Origin: a virus | Virus record (IMG/VR): IMGVR_UViG_3300009788_000087 | DNA length: 64,000 nt | Reading direction: 5' to 3' (one strand) | In this document: piece by piece, positions 4,790 through 56,541 of the stretch | How the letters are laid out: each line of letters starts with the position of its first letter | How positions within the stretch are numbered: the stretch's first letter is position 1 | Program-made: the position numbers and the translations under genes | The notes under the pieces: model-generated | Databases searched by the model: none | Seen by the model: only the letters and a program-made list of their open reading frames with translations | Told to the model about the DNA's origin: nothing

Positions 4790-6774
4790 GGTACATCCTT
4801 TCTCGGTTTGTTCCAAATGCGGATGCGTGCAATGGTCCCATTCAAGTATTGAGCCCCACCAGTGACGAAACCAAGACGTATTTTATCTGCGTTATTACCG
4901 GCAGTCCATGTAACCGCAGCTCCTGCCGTTCGTACACCGTTGACATGAATGTCCCAGTTTTCCCCGGCGTGTTCGTCTAGTTCGTCCACTGAATCCCAGC
5001 GATAGCGAACCGTGTGTCCAAGGTGGTGCGATGTCGCTGGTGAGGTGACTGTCTTGGTCACCTTGATTACAGCGCTACTATCCCAATGGACAAAATTCGG
5101 TCTATCGTTAACACCGGACGTTCCCTGATATTTCAGGACTAACCTATCGTTGAGCGGATTTCCAATCATCCAGACGTACCCGTCGGAGGCATCATTATCT
5201 AAAGATGCGGCACTAATCGATTCTACTTCGCCGGCCACAGGATTGTGATACGTGTTACCGCCCGCATTGAGCAAGACCACGTCCGTTTTTATTCGTGTTG
5301 CACTCGCACCCGTTGGTGTTGGTATGTATGTCGTTGCCCCTTCATTTAAGTTGCCTCCAACATTTATCTCGAGCTGCCAGCCCCACTCAGCGATCTTGGA
5401 ACCGTCGTCAACCTTGAGCCGGAACTCAATAGAGACGCAGCCGGCCGGCGTCGTGAACGTCGTCTCGTTCCGGCGCACCTTATCATCAACGTTGAAGTCG
5501 AGCGCCAATGCGGCGGAACCAATCACAGCTGTGTTTGTTACGTCAAAGATCTCGACATCACCGAACGCATTGACGCCAGTATCGCCGCGGCCTGCAAACA
5601 AGCTCCATGCGTAATCGGTCTCTGCGAGAACCGTGATTGTCTGCTTACGACCCTCGACTCCACCCGCTGCGGCAATCGTGTTCATTGTCTGTGTACCGTC
5701 AGGCGCCTCGTTGGCATTGGCGACACTGGTCGGCGTTCCTATGTCAACATAGTCAGTGCCGGTCGCAGCCTCTTCACTTCCTTTGCATAGATTTGTTGCA
5801 GCATCTTCGACAAATATTCCGAGCTTGCTTGCGTGTGTGTGGACGCTATTATATCCGCTCGCGAACTGGCCCGGGCCGTACTTGCCCACGCGGTCGCCGT
5901 AGGACGAGTCATCGCCTACGATCGGGCACGCCAAGCTCGCGCGGGTGTACGTGTCGAGCTCGGGGGTCGTGTTCTGTGTGGCATGCGTCCAGAAGGCGTC
6001 GAGGTCGCTCTGGCCGAGGCCCTCGGCGTCGGCGCCCTCGAAGATCGCGCAATAGGCGATATCTACCTTAGCCCCCTGCGTTCTGGATGCTCCCAAGGAG
6101 AACCCGACCGTTGACGTAAGGTCTATCGTTCCCGCAATTGTCCCCGAGTCGCTGCCCTGGTCAGTGAAGAGTTTTACGTCTCCAGTGTTGCGGTCAATCA
6201 TTGTGAGCGCGGCGTGCCAAGCATCATCCTGGTAATCGTAGGCCGCGTCTTGAACTGCGCCGGATACGGTGCCGGAATCTTCCCCGGACCAACCCCAAGT
6301 AATGCGACCACCAGTCTGTGTCGTTATCCAGTAGCCATGCGGCGGTGTCGTTTGTCGCTTGCCAAATAGGTAAAGAGTCGTAGATGATGGGTGGAGACGG
6401 AATACGAGTAGCACAGCGATTGACGTAGTAGGAGCGTCGAACGGCGTTGCGCTCGCTGCTAGGAACTTCTGGTTTGTCGCATCATCGAAGGCTACACACT
6501 TCTTGTTGTAAGTATTTGTGCCGTCGTAGAACCCGACAGATGTTCGTCCCTGGTGGGGGGAGGTGGTCGGCACCAATGCGGTACTCGCAACCTCCCCGAT
6601 AAGGTTTCCAGACGTCTCATCACAGAGCCAGATCTCGCTAGCAGTTCGCCCTGGGATCACACTCCCCGCCTGGTCCGGGAATGCCTGCTGAGCCGGCTCG
6701 CGGAAGTCTAGGTCTAGTAGCAGTTCGATGAACGCGCCCCTAAAAAATGCAACCGGTTTAACAACTGGACTCAT
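4786..6774 (-). CDS. putative tail fibre/receptor-binding protein with concanavalin-A/LamG-like and carbohydrate-binding-like domains
   Basis: Beta-rich; DDAWHAALTMIDR and YLNGTIARIRIWN are LamG-type segments; AATNLCKGSE...WGWQLE resembles a CBM-like module; GC-rich. Confidence 0.6.
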   Translation of the reverse strand: MSPVVKPVAFFRGAFIELLLDLDFREPAQQAFPDQAGSVIPGRTASEIWLCDETSGNLIGEVASTALVPTTSPHQGRTSVGFYDGTNTYNKKCVAFDDATNQKFLAASATPFDAPTTSIAVLLVFRLHPSSTTLYLFGKRQTTPPHGYWITTQTGGRITWGWSGEDSGTVSGAVQDAAYDYQDDAWHAALTMIDRNTGDVKLFTDQGSDSGTIAGTIDLTSTVGFSLGASRTQGAKVDIAYCAIFEGADAEGLGQSDLDAFWTHATQNTTPELDTYTRASLACPIVGDDSSYGDRVGKYGPGQFASGYNSVHTHASKLGIFVEDAATNLCKGSEEAATGTDYVDIGTPTSVANANEAPDGTQTMNTIAAAGGVEGRKQTITVLAETDYAWSLFAGRGDTGVNAFGDVEIFDVTNTAVIGSAALALDFNVDDKVRRNETTFTTPAGCVSIEFRLKVDDGSKIAEWGWQLEINVGGNLNEGATTYIPTPTGASATRIKTDVVLLNAGGNTYHNPVAGEVESISAASLDNDASDGYVWMIGNPLNDRLVLKYQGTSGVNDRPNFVHWDSSAVIKVTKTVTSPATSHHLGHTVRYRWDSVDELDEHAGENWDIHVNGVRTAGAAVTWTAGNNADKIRLGFVTGGAQYLNGTIARIRIWNKPRKDVP

Positions 6775-9689: not shown

Positions 9690-12600
9690 CTATGAACCGC
9701 CACCGATCAAAAGCGGGAATTTCTTACCTGACTTATCTTTGTTTCTTCCGAATCTCGTCCAGACTTCAATCCTACCCTCAGGAACAAATTGTGTTTCTTG
9801 GTTTTTCCTTCTCTCATATGTCACTTTTGGACGTTCTAGCATGTGGCTCTCTACCACGAACTCATCGCCGATGAAATATGCACGAGCGGGAATTAGTTTC
9901 TTCACCATCTCGATAAATGTTCGATCGAAGAATTCAAGCATATCTGCAAAAATAGTGAAGTTCAAACGACCTTGCAGACGCTTGAAGTAATTGTCTCGAA
10001 GTATTCGAATATCATCATAATGAATTCGATACTTGTTTGCCGGGAATCCGATTGCTTGGTTTAATTCGTCGAGTGATACAAGCATCTGAACGATATCTTC
10101 ATTTAATGCATCGATCATATTGAACTCTAGACTGACGATCTTCAAGTCATTAACGAAATCGGATCTTTTTAGTGTCGTTGTATTGAATGTACGAACTTTA
10201 TCTTCATTCCATCCAAAGTCTAGTGATGCGATATAGTGGTATCTATTCAAAAACTTCTTGTAACTTTGTTGATCTGAAGCAAATAATAGACCATTAAGAA
10301 AACCTAAAGGATCTGGTATTGCAAGATTTTCGATATCTGAGATAAGAGTACCGACACTTTCATCTCCGCCATTAAGCCTTAGGTGAATCTTAAGATCACT
10401 AAGGTTTTCGTTAATGTCGTTAACGCCATAGCTTTGAAAGTTTATAGCATGATCATCAAGCTCATCTTTCGTTAAAACTCGATCCCAATATCTAATTTCT
10501 TGAGCCCAAAACTGACTCTGTGTAGTTTTACCAAGTGATGAACCGACACCATGTGTATCCGAACCGATGCCGCCGACTGTAATACTATTCCATTTTCCAA
10601 CAAATATCTGACCACTTTCAACACTACCAGAACTTCCCACGGCAGATAAATCTATATCTCCACTTTCATCAATATGGCGTACTTCGATCGATATTGATGA
10701 ACTCAATTGATTTTTAATAATAGCAACGTTGTACCACTCGTTGTTAAATATCCCTATGCTATCTGTCTTTATATTAAGACTAAGTGAATCAGAAGAAGAA
10801 AGAGCAAGAGTTCCTGTATGCGATCCAACACTATCTTTATGGTACCACAACCCCATACCTGTTGCTGCAGTGAAATCGCCTGTAGACATTAAAAAACCCT
10901 CTGTGAGAGTTGCTTGAATATCTGTCGAGGAAGTTAAAGGAAATCTAAATCTACCTTCTAGAGTAAAACTACCTGTGCCTTGAAATGATCCTGCCCCTAG
11001 TGGAAACCTAGCTTCAACACGACTAAGAACCGATCCTGACCCGAACCCAAGAGCATATACTGATTTATCTGCCGTTATTCGTTTAGTTTGAATGCTCACT
11101 TCTGGCTGGTGACTATACTCCTTTAATCTTACGAAATTTTCATTGACACCATATGCTCTTAGAAGAGACTTAACACTCTCACGTGTACCTTTCGTTTTAT
11201 ATAAGTGCATGAGGTTAATGAGTGTCCTTCGCCAGAACTCATTTTTAATCTCAAATAATTTCTTATCAAGATCCTCATTCGACTGAACATTCTTGAGCAC
11301 AGATCTTCCGATCAGATATTGGAATGCATCAGTATTCAAGAAGTTGCCAGTAAACTCCCAACCAAAGAATTTCGCAACAACGTCAAGTAATGCGTCAGGT
11401 GTTTGATCGAAATCGCTGTAGTTAACTTTTAGAACATTGATAAACTGATCGATGTTAGACTTGATTATATCGTAATGACGAGCTGCGATGAGGACGAAGT
11501 TCTTAAGAACATCTGTCTGACCCTGTTGCAGCTCTTCAAGTTTAAAGAAATTCTCAGGCAACATGTCGGTAATTTTATTGCTGTTCTGTCTGTCGTAAGC
11601 ACTTCCAGATGCCTGCTGCACAGCGATATATTCTGATATATCCGAAGTATTGAGGTTTAGAATTAGATCTGGATCCTCTCTAACCAAAAATGTGCCGCTG
11701 TGTCTTAGTGCACTGTGATAGTTTTGAATACGACCATTTAATCCATGACCTGAATAGTCGAGAGCAATCTTGTTGTCTTCATTTTCGAATGCTGATCCCG
11801 TTGTGTTGAATCTATACAACGCATTGAGGTTCTTCTGTGCGAATTGTTTTACATTGAATGATGAGCTAATCTCCTGTATAGTTCGTGCCTTATTCCAGAT
11901 CTTTACGTCATCTATAGATCCTGTAAACCATACATTTAATCCAGCCGTAACGGCCGGTAGTTCTAATGTACCAGAACCAATGTAGAGATTCTCAGCAGGA
12001 ATGTCAAGGGCCTCATGTATATTAATTGAAGCAGACTGGGCTATGACTGGAAATTCTGTTTGACTGCCTGTTAAAATCGCAATTGAACCAGTAAACGATG
12101 ATCGATTAAAGATACCTGCAACATATTGAATAGTACTAGGAGCAAATGGTGTTGAAACTGAATCTGCAACAGAACCTGACCTTACCATGAATGTTATGTT
12201 TGAGCCAGTCAGGAACAGAGAGTAACCGTAGCGTTCCGTCGATGATGAGCCGCTCATCTTTTGGATAAGCATCTGGAAATCGTCTGTGCCCGTTAGAGCA
12301 ACAGACGGTTCATACCACATCTCAACAGTCAGCGAACCGGTTCCAGGACTCAGCAGACCATTTTTTGCCTTGCCGTTCTCACTGCCAATGTCTTCAATGG
12401 CGACGTATGACTTAGCAATCGTTGGATCGATCCTTAAGTGACCAACAGACTTCGGCCAAGCTTTAACTACATGTTGTTGATATTGGTCTAAGTCATTTTC
12501 GAATCTCTCAATGTTTTCACATGTCCCGTCAAAAGGATATTCATTGAGTATCTTCTCACCAGTAATATTGAAATAATCAAGTGCTGAGTTGAAGAATACA

Positions 12601-50833: not shown

Positions 50834-51433
50834 ATGCAACGATTTCTTATTACTGGTTGTCCGAGATCTGGAACTAAATTCATTGCTGACCTCTTAAGCA
50901 ACTTAGGAATTAAATGTGGTTGGGAGCAAATCTATAATTATGATATCGCTGCGTGGGGAGAAGGTGTTGTTGGTGAATCTAGCTGGCTTTCTGTCCAACA
51001 CTTTGATGTTCTTCCAGAAGATGTCATTGTGTTGCACCAAGTTCGTTATCCTCCAGAAGTTATCAAATCAATGATGCACTGGACTATATTAGAATCTGGT
51101 AAAGATAAAGCACATGCTTCTCGAACCACAAATAAACCCGAAAGATATGTCATTAGGGGATCAGAAAGAAGACAGCTGATATACGAAAGATTTTGGGTAG
51201 ACATCAACAATATCATTGCTGAACGTGCAGTGTATAGATGGAAAGTTGAAGATATAGATTTCGAAATTTACAACTTGCTTGACATCATCAAAATCAAAGT
51301 GCCAGAAGACAAAATAAAAAAAGAACTTGAATCAATCAATCGAAAAATAAACTCGGGTCATTATAAAGGACCTAAGCAGTTAAAAGATCCGGATGCAATA
51401 AAGCTCGCAGAATCCTATGGCTACAAACTATAA
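50834..51433 (+). CDS. sulfotransferase-family protein
   Basis: ITGCPRSGTKF 5'-PSB motif, GESSW, VLHQVRYP; only convincing plus-strand gene. Confidence 0.8.
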   Translation: MQRFLITGCPRSGTKFIADLLSNLGIKCGWEQIYNYDIAAWGEGVVGESSWLSVQHFDVLPEDVIVLHQVRYPPEVIKSMMHWTILESGKDKAHASRTTNKPERYVIRGSERRQLIYERFWVDINNIIAERAVYRWKVEDIDFEIYNLLDIIKIKVPEDKIKKELESINRKINSGHYKGPKQLKDPDAIKLAESYGYKL

Positions 51434-51436
51434 ACG

Positions 51437-51525
51437 ATGGGCGTCCTAGGCCAGACTAGACGATACCTCCCTACGTATGCATCCGTAAGTTGAAAGGCAG
51501 TAGGATTTGAACCTGCGTTTCCCAT
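51437..51525 (-). ncRNA. circularly permuted, anticodon-less tRNA mimic (unit D)
   Basis: Order: ATGGG / var / T arm / TGCCTTT-hairpin-GGAGGTA / D arm / CCCAT. Confidence 0.75.
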
Positions 51526-51531
51526 AAACTT

Positions 51532-51619
51532 GAGGTGGCTCTGCCGCTGAGCTACAATTCCTCGTCGGTCATGGCCGAACATCATCAGAATTGGTTGGAT
51601 TCGAACCAACGCACACCCC
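51532..51619 (-). ncRNA. circularly permuted, anticodon-less tRNA mimic (unit C)
   Basis: Order: GGGGT / var / T arm GTTGG-TTCGAAT-CCAAC / CAATTCT-hairpin-GGAATTG / D arm / ACCTC. Confidence 0.8.
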
Positions 51620-51621
51620 TT

Positions 51622-51697
51622 TGGTATCCTCAGATGGATTCGAGCCAACATTCTCCACCATGTCACGGTGGCGCTTTTCCGGTTAAGCTATGAGGAC
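51622..51697 (-). tRNA. trnV: tRNA-Val(GAC)
   Basis: Loop GTGACAT (G32/U38), CCA. Confidence 0.85.
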
Positions 51698-51702
51698 AAA
51701 AC

Positions 51703-51833
51703 TGGTGGGGGAGACGGGATTCGAACCCGCATAACCTGAAGCCCTTTAAAAACTTCGCGCCAGTCCAATTGCTGGACTTCTAGGTGTTAACACCACATAT
51801 AAAGCGGCTGCCTATCCAATCGGCTACTCCCCA
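51703..51833 (-). ncRNA. 131-nt tRNA-like RNA with giant branched variable region and encoded CCA
   Basis: Acceptor, D arm, T arm and ACCA all present; about 60 extra nt 3' of a TTTATAT-loop arm. Confidence 0.7.
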
Positions 51834-51839
51834 AAAACT

Positions 51840-51914
51840 TGGTACCTCGTGTCAGAATCGAACTGATCGTCGTGCGGTTATCGGCCGCACACTCTGCCAT
51901 TGAGCTAACGAGGT
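51840..51914 (-). tRNA. trnI: tRNA-Ile(GAT), C33 variant
   Basis: TGCGG-CCGATAA-CCGCA, CCA. Confidence 0.85.
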
Positions 51915-51920
51915 AAAAAG

Positions 51921-52000
51921 TGGACGCGAAGAGAATCGAACTCTTGTCCTAAATTGTTCCATTTGTCGGCTTACAACCTAGTCGAAACCAGCGCGCGCCC
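51921..52000 (-). ncRNA. ssrA: mini-tmRNA (tRNA-like domain only)
   Basis: GGGCGCG...TGGTTTCGAC, G3:U70, P2a stem, GGAC linker, T arm, A73; only a 15-nt loop where the mRNA domain should be. Confidence 0.75.
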
Positions 52001-52081
52001 TAAAACTGCCTGCCGCCACCCTCCGGACTTCCATCACTGATGTCGTGAGTAGCATACCATTGGGACGTACAGACATAAAGA

Positions 52082-52181
52082 AGAAGGTGGGCCGGACTCG
52101 CACCGGCAAGACTTATCCATGGTTACGTCTTTTATACAGAGCTTGCAAATTCTCTGCACGGACTCTAATACCCGCCCCTCC
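52082..52181 (-). ncRNA. Sec/allo-tRNA-like non-canonical cloverleaf
   Basis: Acceptor with bulged A, compact D arm, 7-bp stem with AATTTGCAAG loop, long variable arm, T arm GCCGG-TGCGAGT-CCGGC. Confidence 0.55.
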
Positions 52182-52188
52182 ATAAAAT

Positions 52189-52262
52189 TGGCAGATGTTG
52201 AAGGAATCGAACCCTCACCTACAGACTTGGAAACTGTCGTGCTACCACTACACCAAACAAAT
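52189..52262 (-). tRNA. trnW: tRNA-Trp(CCA), copy 2, two acceptor mismatches (possibly degenerate)
   Basis: Loop TTCCAAG, G73, CCA. Confidence 0.6.
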
Positions 52263-52269
52263 ATAAAGT

Positions 52270-52408
52270 CACCCACGAGAAGCATTACGACGTGTGTAAG
52301 TCTTCAGCTAATCCTCACATTTCGAACCAAAGGAATAGTACAGATCTTACAGCGATACGTATCTTCTATCTGCCACGATGCTGCAATACGCGCTTGCGAT
52401 GCCGTGGG
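52270..52408 (-). ncRNA. approx. 140-nt end-paired structured RNA
   Basis: CCCACG/CGTGGG plus GCAT/ATGC terminal helices; begins right after tRNA-Met CCA. Confidence 0.45.
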
Positions 52409-53069: not shown

Positions 53070-53098
53070 ATTATACCATCTCACTTTTCATATGTAAA
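53070..53098 (-). promoter_or_regulatory. sigma70-like promoter
   Basis: TTTACA-17 nt-TATAAT. Confidence 0.75.
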
Positions 53099-55304: not shown

Positions 55305-55343
55305 AAAAAAAGACCCAAGGAGAATAGCCTTCTCCCCGGGTCG
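55305..55343 (-). terminator. intrinsic terminator closing the permuted-RNA transcript
   Basis: GACCCGGGGAGAA-GGCTA-TTCTCCTTGGGTC followed by a T-run. Confidence 0.85.
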
Positions 55344-55367
55344 TTGTCTATTGACTATGAATCAATA

Positions 55368-55558
55368 ATTGTTGCGACTTATGTTGATCAACACGTTTAA
55401 TCTTCGTCTTTAGATCTAAGAACCTGCGAGTTACCATTACTCCACCTCGTCGCTCAATTCACTGATTATTTCAATGAACTCAGCGACAAGGGCTGGATAC
55501 GAACCAGCATTTCAGGTGAATTTGTACGAAGAGTTAGAGATGACCTACCACAACGATA
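55368..55558 (-). ncRNA. YrlA-like (Y RNA) permuted tRNA mimic (unit B)
   Basis: ACCTG / AAAT / T arm / approx. 20-bp closed acceptor hairpin / D arm / CAGGT, extended by a long terminal helix. Confidence 0.75.
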
Positions 55559-55561
55559 TTA

Positions 55562-55793
55562 AACTTTTGAGGAATAGTCTAAGTTTTACTTATCACTTTT
55601 AATGGACATAGAGAGTTAATCTCTACGCGTCTACCAATTTCGCCACCCGATATAAACGGAGCAGTGAGATATCCACGACTTAACGTATTCATCTTTGCTC
55701 CTAACCAGTATATCTACTGGTTTAGTTATCGGGGCAGGCATCGAACCTACACGTCCCTAAAATGATCAATGAACTTTAGTCTAAATCTCAGCT
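55562..55793 (-). ncRNA. circularly permuted tRNA-Leu(UAA)-like RNA opened in the variable arm (unit A)
   Basis: T arm, CCCGATA+A73, 74-nt insert, TATCGGG, Leu-type D arm, TAGAG-ATTAACT-CTCTA; TGTCC pairs with the upstream GGACG. Confidence 0.75.
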
Positions 55794-55806
55794 TACCTCA
55801 AACCTC

Positions 55807-56541
55807 CTAGCTACCAAACAGGTAGTCAAAAACTCGTTTACCGACCGTTGCCTTTGGAGCATTGGTGCTATTTGCTTCTTCACGTGCAAACTTCGCTGCC
55901 TTAAGCAGAGTTTCAATACGACGAAGGAACGTTTTCTTCCGTGAAGAGAGAATCGCGCCGGACTGCTTCACTGTATCCCAGTGACCGACCGTAACATCTC
56001 TAGTGATGAGCTGTGTCTGAGCTGGATGTTCTGGCGTTGCATCGTACATGACAATCGGCTCTTGGACCTTTGCCGTCGAACGTGTTGTCACTGCGGCAGT
56101 CTTGAATAGACTCGCAGCATCATCATGATTCCACTCCTCATCCGTGGAGAGAGTTGGCAGCGACTCAACGAATGTCCTAATGTCAATCAACTGCTTCTCA
56201 AGGAAAAGCAAATACGTTGCTGGAACCTTTTCCAAAAGAACAGCACCGTCTACAACAACATCAGCTTTTGCTGCAGTGTTGGCAAAATCCTTCTGAGCGG
56301 TGACATCAAACAATTCACTAAGCGACTCAGACGCCGCATCGAGAACTTCATCAACACGCGCTTGGACATGCTTGATCTCGTTAGGGCGTTCTTCACCTTC
56401 CTCATTACTCTTTCGCCACGATTTAGCAAAACCGTTAAAAAGATCACTCTTTTGAGCGACCTTGTACAACCTTGTGAGCTCCGACTTTGCTCGAGTCTTC
56501 ACACCCTTCTCAATAGCGATTACTTGATTTAGTTTTGGCAT
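55807..56541 (-). CDS. conserved coiled-coil hypothetical protein (phage/actinobacterial family)
   Basis: MPKLNQVIAIEKGVK...VPATYLLFLEK...HPAQ...AKFAREEAN; I recognise the family but know no function. Confidence 0.85.
   Translation of the reverse strand: MPKLNQVIAIEKGVKTRAKSELTRLYKVAQKSDLFNGFAKSWRKSNEEGEERPNEIKHVQARVDEVLDAASESLSELFDVTAQKDFANTAAKADVVVDGAVLLEKVPATYLLFLEKQLIDIRTFVESLPTLSTDEEWNHDDAASLFKTAAVTTRSTAKVQEPIVMYDATPEHPAQTQLITRDVTVGHWDTVKQSGAILSSRKKTFLRRIETLLKAAKFAREEANSTNAPKATVGKRVFDYLFGS

Follow-up and report, generated by a model that had tools for sequence, protein, structure and literature searches.

Two adjacent units in the tRNA array of a large phage, here called C and D, are, on the pairing of their predicted helices, tRNA bodies that are circularly permuted and lack an anticodon; their topology is that of YrlA RNAs without the Ro60 stem. 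We regard the two units as probable free tRNA-body mimics, that is, non-coding RNAs that would be released from a tRNA precursor. By models built on sequences of other phages, their module types are also those of the heads found in a two-headed RNA associated with DUF7873 genes.

Both units were analysed within the window, by which we mean the whole 64-kb stretch of viral DNA under study. An array of 32 tRNAs called by ARAGORN occupies its minus strand at 42.8–54.6 kb. The protein encoded next to unit D is present on a 196-kb contig, which indicates a large phage genome as the source of the window. No close relatives of the window were found in INPHARED or IMG/VR.

Anatomy of units C and D

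The first-pass annotation had described two units of 88–89 nt, 6 nt apart and starting 2 nt past the CCA of a tRNA-Val, and these coordinates were confirmed. The parts run in the following order, with positions numbered along the window.

51532..51619, minus strand: unit C, 88-nt permuted tRNA body (coordinates checked)
51619–51615, minus strand: unit C anticodon-stem 3′ strand, GGGGU
51614–51611, minus strand: unit C variable loop, GUGC
51610–51594, minus strand: unit C T arm, GUUGG-UUCGAAU-CCAAC
51593–51587, minus strand: unit C acceptor 3′ strand, CAAUUCU
51586–51562, minus strand: unit C linker hairpin, 25 nt
51561–51555, minus strand: unit C acceptor 5′ strand, GGAAUUG, followed by U8 and A9
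51552–51538, minus strand: unit C D arm, GCUC-AGCGGCA-GAGC, followed by C26
51536–51532, minus strand: unit C anticodon-stem 5′ strand, ACCUC
51526..51531, minus strand: spacer AAGUUU, 6 nt, between units C and D (read from the sequence)
51437..51525, minus strand: unit D, 89-nt permuted tRNA body with a tRNA-Glu-like core (coordinates checked)
51525–51521, minus strand: unit D anticodon-stem 3′ strand, AUGGG, followed by the variable loop AAAC
51516–51500, minus strand: unit D T arm, GCAGG-UUCAAAU-CCUAC, with a C50–A64 mismatch
51499–51493, minus strand: unit D acceptor 3′ strand, UGCCUUU
51492–51471, minus strand: unit D linker hairpin, 22 nt
51470–51464, minus strand: unit D acceptor 5′ strand, GGAGGUA, followed by UC
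51461–51443, minus strand: unit D D arm, tRNA-Glu-like, followed by G
51441–51437, minus strand: unit D anticodon-stem 5′ strand, CCCAU

This order of parts, and the four paired helices claimed for each unit, also stood. All 21 helix pairs are intact in unit C and 20 of 21 in unit D, where the sole mismatch is the one in the T stem (C50–A64). Both units share a UUCRAAU T loop, a 4-nt variable loop, a 5-bp T stem, and a 7-bp acceptor helix. By reading of the sequence, the nucleotides of the tertiary contacts are complete in both (U8, A14, G15/C48, G18–G19, A21, G53–C61, and T54–A58). The core of unit D combines U11–A24, U13–G22, A46, the absence of residue 47, and the 4-nt variable loop AAAC, a set that we take to be of tRNA-Glu type by the identity elements of Escherichia coli tRNA-Glu.

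Compared with a canonical decoding tRNA, units C and D have no contiguous cloverleaf, no 7-nt anticodon loop, and no free acceptor end. A hairpin closes the acceptor end of both, and no CCA follows either acceptor 3′ strand. The linker hairpin of unit D can stack onto the acceptor helix with a 3–4-nt bulge, while in unit C the 7-bp acceptor helix is plain and an internal loop precedes the linker hairpin. In unit C, the linker region at 51562–51593 (minus strand) reads CAAUUCU-GAU-GA-U...C-GA-GGAAUUG, so that a UGAUGA word faces GA by the acceptor helix, as it would in a kink-turn (a three-nucleotide bulge plus tandem G–A pairs). This arrangement is absent from related modules and may be due to chance.

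At the other end, the closing stubs that correspond to the anticodon stem are 5–6 bp long. They cannot lengthen, because they are flanked by a tRNA 2 nt upstream, the sister unit at a distance of 6 nt, and an opposite-strand coding sequence 3 nt downstream. The earlier statement that ligation of the ends gives no U33-type loop agrees with the flanks: inspection of AA...AAGUUU around unit C and AAGUUU...CGUUUAU around unit D revealed no U33-type 7-nt loop from the joined ends.

Tests of the permuted cloverleaf

The units had been expected to be missed or miscalled by tRNA finders, and this is what we observed. In native order, neither ARAGORN nor the Rfam tRNA model called unit C or unit D as a tRNA, and Rfam gave only one chimeric call of 18.8 bits, made of the 5′ half of C and the 3′ half of D. 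We rejected this combination as a tRNA in normal order, as its acceptor strands are unpaired and ARAGORN does not accept it. After permutation in silico, a step that the first-pass annotation had proposed, ARAGORN called both units as tRNAs with any of five dummy anticodon loops. Chimeric halves failed in the same procedure, and none of 400 shuffled-half constructs passed.

The permuted module architecture is real and common in phages. A scanner that combined a T arm, a sealed acceptor, and a closing stem with validation by ARAGORN found 116 sites not overlapping normal tRNAs in 1.76 Mb of phage loci, versus none in the reversed sequences. A stricter version gave 200 validated candidates versus 0. 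Among the permuted sites in the fetched loci, unit C alone lies less than 15 nt from a tRNA.

Folding energies were less distinctive. The permuted cloverleaf of unit C is within 0.4 kcal/mol of the minimum-energy fold, and the energies of the two units did not differ significantly from those of shuffled sequences (z = −1.1 and −0.2). Weak folding z-scores are usual for tRNAs. As a gauge of handle strength, flank-duplex energy distinguished poorly between real and mismatched flanks. A pairing of −16 kcal/mol between the D arm of unit C and sequence 3′ of unit D fell at about the 10th percentile of the mismatched-flank control, and we treated it as chance.

Identity to the tRNAs of the window does not exceed 60% for either unit, which indicates that the units are not recent rearrangements of local tRNA genes. 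Generic models from the MAFFT alignments A1 and A2 were dropped, since differences in variable-loop and D-loop length shift the helices out of register. A third alignment (A3) was 97.8% paired, with double changes at 16 of 21 pairs, but its sequences had been chosen for pairing, so this count is circular and provides no evidence for units C and D.

Locus and operon context

Units C and D lie on the same strand as the array tRNAs, at the end of a run that probably starts at a strong promoter-like site.

51622..51697, minus strand: tRNA-Val(GAC), called by ARAGORN and by the Rfam tRNA model (55.3 bits), with an encoded CCA ending at 51622
53070..53098, minus strand: sigma-70-type promoter-like site (TTTACA, 17 nt, TATAAT, with TG), a consensus match only, with 11 of 12 matches in a consensus scan

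Judged by this consensus match, the site is likely the start of an operon that ends in units C and D. Downstream of it are tRNAs for His, Leu, Leu, Met, Trp, Ile, and Val, and then units C and D as the last elements. Only the AA spacer at 51621–51620 separates the CCA of tRNA-Val from unit C, and 3′ processing of this tRNA would therefore set the 5′ end of unit C. Functional tRNAs of the array are separated by gaps of 1–11 nt. Two short open reading frames here (51421–51666, minus strand, and 51535–51693, plus strand) were rejected as genes, as they overlap tRNA-Val.

The run from tRNA-His to tRNA-Val is interspersed with odd tRNA-like elements (51918–52000 and 51706–51833). The 83-nt element at 51918–52000 (minus strand) matches the Rfam tmRNA model with 64.1 bits, with a 304-nt body replaced by 13 nt; only the tRNA-like domain is present, with G3–U70 and no tag reading frame. 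Directly upstream of tRNA-Val, at 51706–51833 (minus strand), is a 128-nt tRNA that Rfam detected at 36.5 bits and ARAGORN missed. Its variable region is enlarged by a 58-nt insertion, its anticodon is UAU, and its CCA is encoded.

On the other side, unit D is convergent with the reading frame at 50834–51433 (plus strand, 199 aa), the sole plus-strand reading frame within the minus-strand array, whose stop codon is 3 nt from unit D. Its product matched no Pfam family and had only five distant homologues, mostly on contigs of 1–2 kb; one of these (L002) is in an unrelated bacterial context. Minus-strand transcripts running past unit D would be antisense to this reading frame. No intrinsic terminator was found on the minus strand at the end of the operon.

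Relationship to the DUF7873-associated two-headed RNA

The window also carries a DUF7873 gene at 55807–56541 (Pfam DUF7873, E = 9e-94), and directly 3′ of it is an RNA with two permuted tRNA-like heads.

55340–55810, minus strand: RNA that carries a handle and two permuted tRNA-like heads, immediately 3′ of the DUF7873 gene
55421..55518, minus strand: Glu-like second head, a paralogue of unit D (59.3 bits with model R1), with a fold that has long closing helices

Using the DUF7873 protein of the window, we fetched 60 loci (L070–L129), and nearly all had one or two permuted cloverleaves right after the gene. Across these DUF7873-anchored loci, 89 of 98 sites were within 700 nt 3′ of the DUF7873 homologue. 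The heads are held in long flanking helices. In many of them (L070–L129, at about 10770–11160; alignment A2), the linker starts with NCCA and ends with CAUG or CGUG immediately ahead of the acceptor 5′ strand, which gives the impression of an encoded RNase P site and CCA end. In the two-headed RNA of the window, a GACGAAG word at 55402–55408 fits the pattern of the Rsr motif, a pattern that occurs at near chance frequency in the window.

Units C and D are, as classified by sequence models, of the same module types as the heads of this RNA. The earlier proposal of a model search was followed with two models, both of which recovered a unit. Model R1 was built on ten Glu-like modules of other phages, with the window sequence excluded. 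In the window, it found unit D with 43.1 bits (E = 4e-11) and the second head at 55421–55518 with 59.3 bits (E = 4e-16), and its next hits, at 25 bits or less, were tRNA–tRNA junctions with broken pairs. The score of unit D is inside the 42–88-bit range of second heads in the 60 DUF7873 loci. Model R2, built on five GUAGCUCA...GGCAGAGC-type modules of other phages, ranked unit C first in the window, at 35.9 bits and with every pair intact. With R2, tRNA–tRNA junctions in other loci scored up to about 40 bits, and the case for unit C therefore rests on its intact pairing and the absence of an overlapping tRNA, not on an E-value.

Loop patterns derived from units C and D retrieved dozens of IMG/VR loci. 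About half of those with paired acceptor strands were just 3′ of a DUF7873 homologue, with 10 of 22 sites within 700 nt. The likeness to the DUF7873 heads thus covers the module types (Glu-like for unit D and GUAGCUCA...GGCAGAGC for unit C), the arrangement of two in tandem, and, in unit D, the hairpin-extended acceptor helix. There are also clear differences. Units C and D lie 4.2 kb downstream of the DUF7873 gene with seven tRNA genes between, whereas DUF7873 heads come directly after the gene; they have no long flanking helices or repeat tracks, and they do not carry the NCCA-like linker of many DUF7873 heads.

Extra permuted modules were found 7–10 kb downstream of DUF7873 in several other phages, as tandem pairs in L084 (19071–19289), L088/L089 (19094–19347), and L119 (20484–20723) and as a single module in L128 (17507–17571). 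Long closing helices are present in every case. DUF7873 phages thus repeatedly carry a second copy of the mimic RNA.

An orthologue of the C–D tandem itself was found in none of INPHARED, IMG/VR, and a scan of JGI metagenomes. A blastn search with 51300–52300 against INPHARED gave only tRNA-Trp matches, and no IMG/VR loci were related through the reading frame at 50834–51433, the RNaseH-like reading frame, or the 340-aa reading frame of the array. The exact T-arm/acceptor word of unit C had no hits in IMG/VR. A tandem-specific pattern gave 54 hits in the metagenome scan, all of them ordinary tRNA/tRNA-Glu neighbours or chance. The sole other copy of the tandem was in L001 (Logan SRR5210996), which at 99.99% identity is uninformative. 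In a 324-kb viral contig (L132), the scans also turned up a nested cloverleaf between tRNA-Ser and tRNA-Glu: a tRNA-like sequence at 6410–6600 (minus strand) that ends in ACCA and whose anticodon loop is apparently replaced by a complete permuted module.

Comparison with YrlA, permuted tRNAs, and tmRNA

YrlA RNAs (Rfam RF02553) are known from Salmonella, Mycobacterium smegmatis, and Ro60-encoding phages (Chen et al. 2014, PMC4201824; Wang et al. 2018, 10.1101/312249). Their module has a tRNA-like fold with a closed acceptor and no CCA, and it is modified by the tRNA enzymes TruB and DusA (PMC4201824; 10.1101/312249). The conserved elbow has been proposed to bind a tRNA-binding effector, as yet unidentified (10.1101/312249; PMC4201824). 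In M. smegmatis, YrlA has a 7-bp acceptor stem and is cut by RNase P and given CCA in vivo (PMC4201824). The long terminal stem of YrlA carries a GNCGAAN0-1G motif near the 5′ end that binds Rsr/Ro60, and YrlA is encoded within about 4 kb of the Ro60/TROVE gene on the same strand (PMC4201824).

Units C and D share with YrlA the T arm, the loop-closed acceptor stem, the D arm, ends in the anticodon stem, and the tertiary-contact nucleotides, and like YrlA they have neither a free CCA nor an anticodon loop. The 7-bp acceptor stem of unit C is that of M. smegmatis YrlA. In contrast to YrlA, the two units have no long terminal stem and are arranged in tandem, flush behind a tRNA inside a tRNA operon. 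The Rfam YrlA model aligned to unit C over the T arm, closed acceptor, and D arm with 24.1 bits (E = 0.015 in a 1-kb search), well below its gathering threshold of 69 bits, and unit D had no Rfam match at E up to 10. Neither form of GNCGAAN0-1G occurs on either strand of 51400–51700. Together with the 5–6-bp closing stems, the missing motif upholds the original reading of a YrlA-type permutation without a Ro60 stem. We found no TROVE/Ro60 protein among 38 reading frames of the window scanned with Pfam (all 24 of at least 250 aa and 14 shorter ones near the array), a scan whose scope, the 64-kb window, is about one third of a genome of at least 196 kb.

The order of 3′ half, linker, and 5′ half is also that of the permuted tRNA genes of Cyanidioschyzon merolae and of two-piece (permuted) tmRNA genes. 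In permuted tRNA genes of the Cyanidioschyzon type, joining the ends restores a normal loop, usually the anticodon loop, and a bulge-helix-bulge motif serves processing. The joined ends of units C and D, in contrast, contain no anticodon loop or bulge-helix-bulge motif, as joining the flanks gives AAGUUU+AA for C and CGUUUAU...+AAGUUU for D. Two-piece or TLD-only tmRNAs are marked by the G3–U70 alanine identity, a replacement of the D loop, and an encoded or added CCA. Both units differ from tmRNA in having A3–U70, a full D arm, and no tag reading frame, and the Rfam tmRNA and permuted-tmRNA models had no hits on the units, their hits being elsewhere (51918–52000 and 51651–51730).

Proposed function and alternative explanations

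As free tRNA-body mimics, units C and D would be transcribed as the last two elements of the tRNA operon and freed on processing of the flanking tRNA. They would fold into the L-shape of tRNA, with an elbow, an acceptor helix, and a stub of the anticodon stem, and would occupy in trans a factor that reads the tRNA elbow/body or acceptor helix and does not need the anticodon. Candidate host factors are a tRNA-processing or tRNA-modifying enzyme and a tRNA-directed defence protein; alternatively, the factor could be the phage's own partner of tRNA mimics. We infer the transcription, release, fold, and above all the target by analogy to YrlA. Since they have no anticodon loop, the units would not decode and would offer no site for anticodon-loop nucleases, and elbow/acceptor mimicry immune to such nucleases is compatible with their anatomy.

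RNase P, which cuts M. smegmatis YrlA, may also nick unit C, whose plain 7-bp acceptor with an internal loop makes it a plausible substrate. An RNase P cut is less likely in unit D, because its acceptor can be prolonged by the stacked linker hairpin, in the manner of Glu-like DUF7873 heads with their long sealed acceptors. One difficulty for release from the precursor is the 2-nt junction: exonucleolytic 3′ trimming of tRNA-Val must halt at unit C or destroy it.

The most serious rival, which we consider unlikely, is that units C and D are detached extra heads of the DUF7873 RNA system, with the same putative partner, for which they would be extra ligands or competitors, and with no host target. 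The retrieval of unit D by a model of Glu-like second heads, its paralogy with the second head of the window, and the mostly DUF7873-adjacent modules retrieved from IMG/VR by patterns from C and D all fit this explanation, as do the extra copies 7–10 kb downstream in L084, L088/L089, L119, and L128. However, those copies keep long closing helices that C and D do not have, the NCCA-type linker of many DUF7873 heads is absent from C and D, and DUF7873 as the binder of its adjacent RNA is itself putative. Next in weight are two further explanations. One is that the units are non-functional relics, duplicated DUF7873 heads or rearranged tRNA genes that lost the handle and survive by chance. This is decidedly unlikely in our view: the tandem lacks orthologues in the databases searched and is the sole flush, handle-less case among the fetched loci, as a relic might be, but nearly all pairs and every tertiary-contact nucleotide have been kept, two different module types adjoin, neither unit is close to any local tRNA, and the 2-nt and 6-nt gaps resemble the packing of functional tRNAs. 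The other, which we find quite improbable, is a 3′-end cap or processing scaffold that would block 3′-to-5′ exonucleases, give RNase P sites, and shield the upstream tRNAs, with no role in trans. The terminal position before a convergent reading frame, the lack of a detected terminator on the minus strand, and the protective role of the tRNA fold suggested by Chen et al. (PMC4201824) point in this direction. Against it, a simple hairpin would suffice, and two distinct modules, an amino-acid-specific core (Glu-like in unit D), and relatives that serve as dedicated RNA heads exceed what a cap needs.

Two explanations that draw on known permuted RNAs have less to recommend them. It is very improbable that units C and D are YrlA-family Y RNAs bound by Ro60/Rsr through a cryptic or very short docking site, with Ro60 encoded elsewhere in the phage or host. 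The YrlA topology and the sub-threshold match of unit C to the Rfam model are in its favour, and the DNA inspected covers 64 kb, whereas the contig spans at least 196 kb; but 51400–51700 contains no GNCGAAN0-1G, the closing stems measure 5–6 bp and are boxed in by tRNA-Val, the sister unit, and a convergent reading frame, no TROVE domain was present among the 38 reading frames scanned, and unit D had no Rfam match. We see next to no chance that the units are true permuted tRNA genes, circularised and re-opened to decoding tRNAs as in Cyanidioschyzon. The upstream 3′ half, the linker, and the downstream 5′ half follow that plan, whereas the joined ends give neither a 7-nt loop with U33 nor a bulge-helix-bulge, no CCA follows either acceptor 3′ strand, and no RNA ligase was found among the window proteins scanned (38 reading frames, Pfam).

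Extending the favoured reading of free tRNA-body mimics, handle-less permuted tRNA bodies could form a distinct, Ro60-independent class of phage small RNAs, excised from tRNA precursors. Such RNAs might soak up a tRNA-directed immune nuclease or sensor of the host, or might act on the DUF7873 particle as exchangeable free heads with amino-acid-specific cores, as in the Glu-like unit D. We advance this extension tentatively and think it rather unlikely to hold.

Novelty and significance

Permuted tRNA-like modules are already published as part of YrlA. Our literature search found no paper on handle-less versions as independent genes in phage tRNA operons, none describing a two-headed RNA 3′ of DUF7873 genes, and none linking handle-less permuted modules to DUF7873 heads. 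New here are the model-based kinship of units C and D to the DUF7873 RNA heads and their flush placement behind a tRNA.

No effector that reads the tRNA-like module of YrlA has yet been identified (10.1101/312249). A YrlA-like module without the Ro60 handle in a phage tRNA operon argues for a job of the module's own, and unit C offers a minimal, 88-nt bait in the search for its partner. Neither tRNA finders nor Rfam detect such genes, and phage tRNA arrays are under-annotated as a result. The kinship between free modules and the heads of the widespread DUF7873 RNAs suggests a single toolkit of tRNA-body mimics that phages use in several formats.
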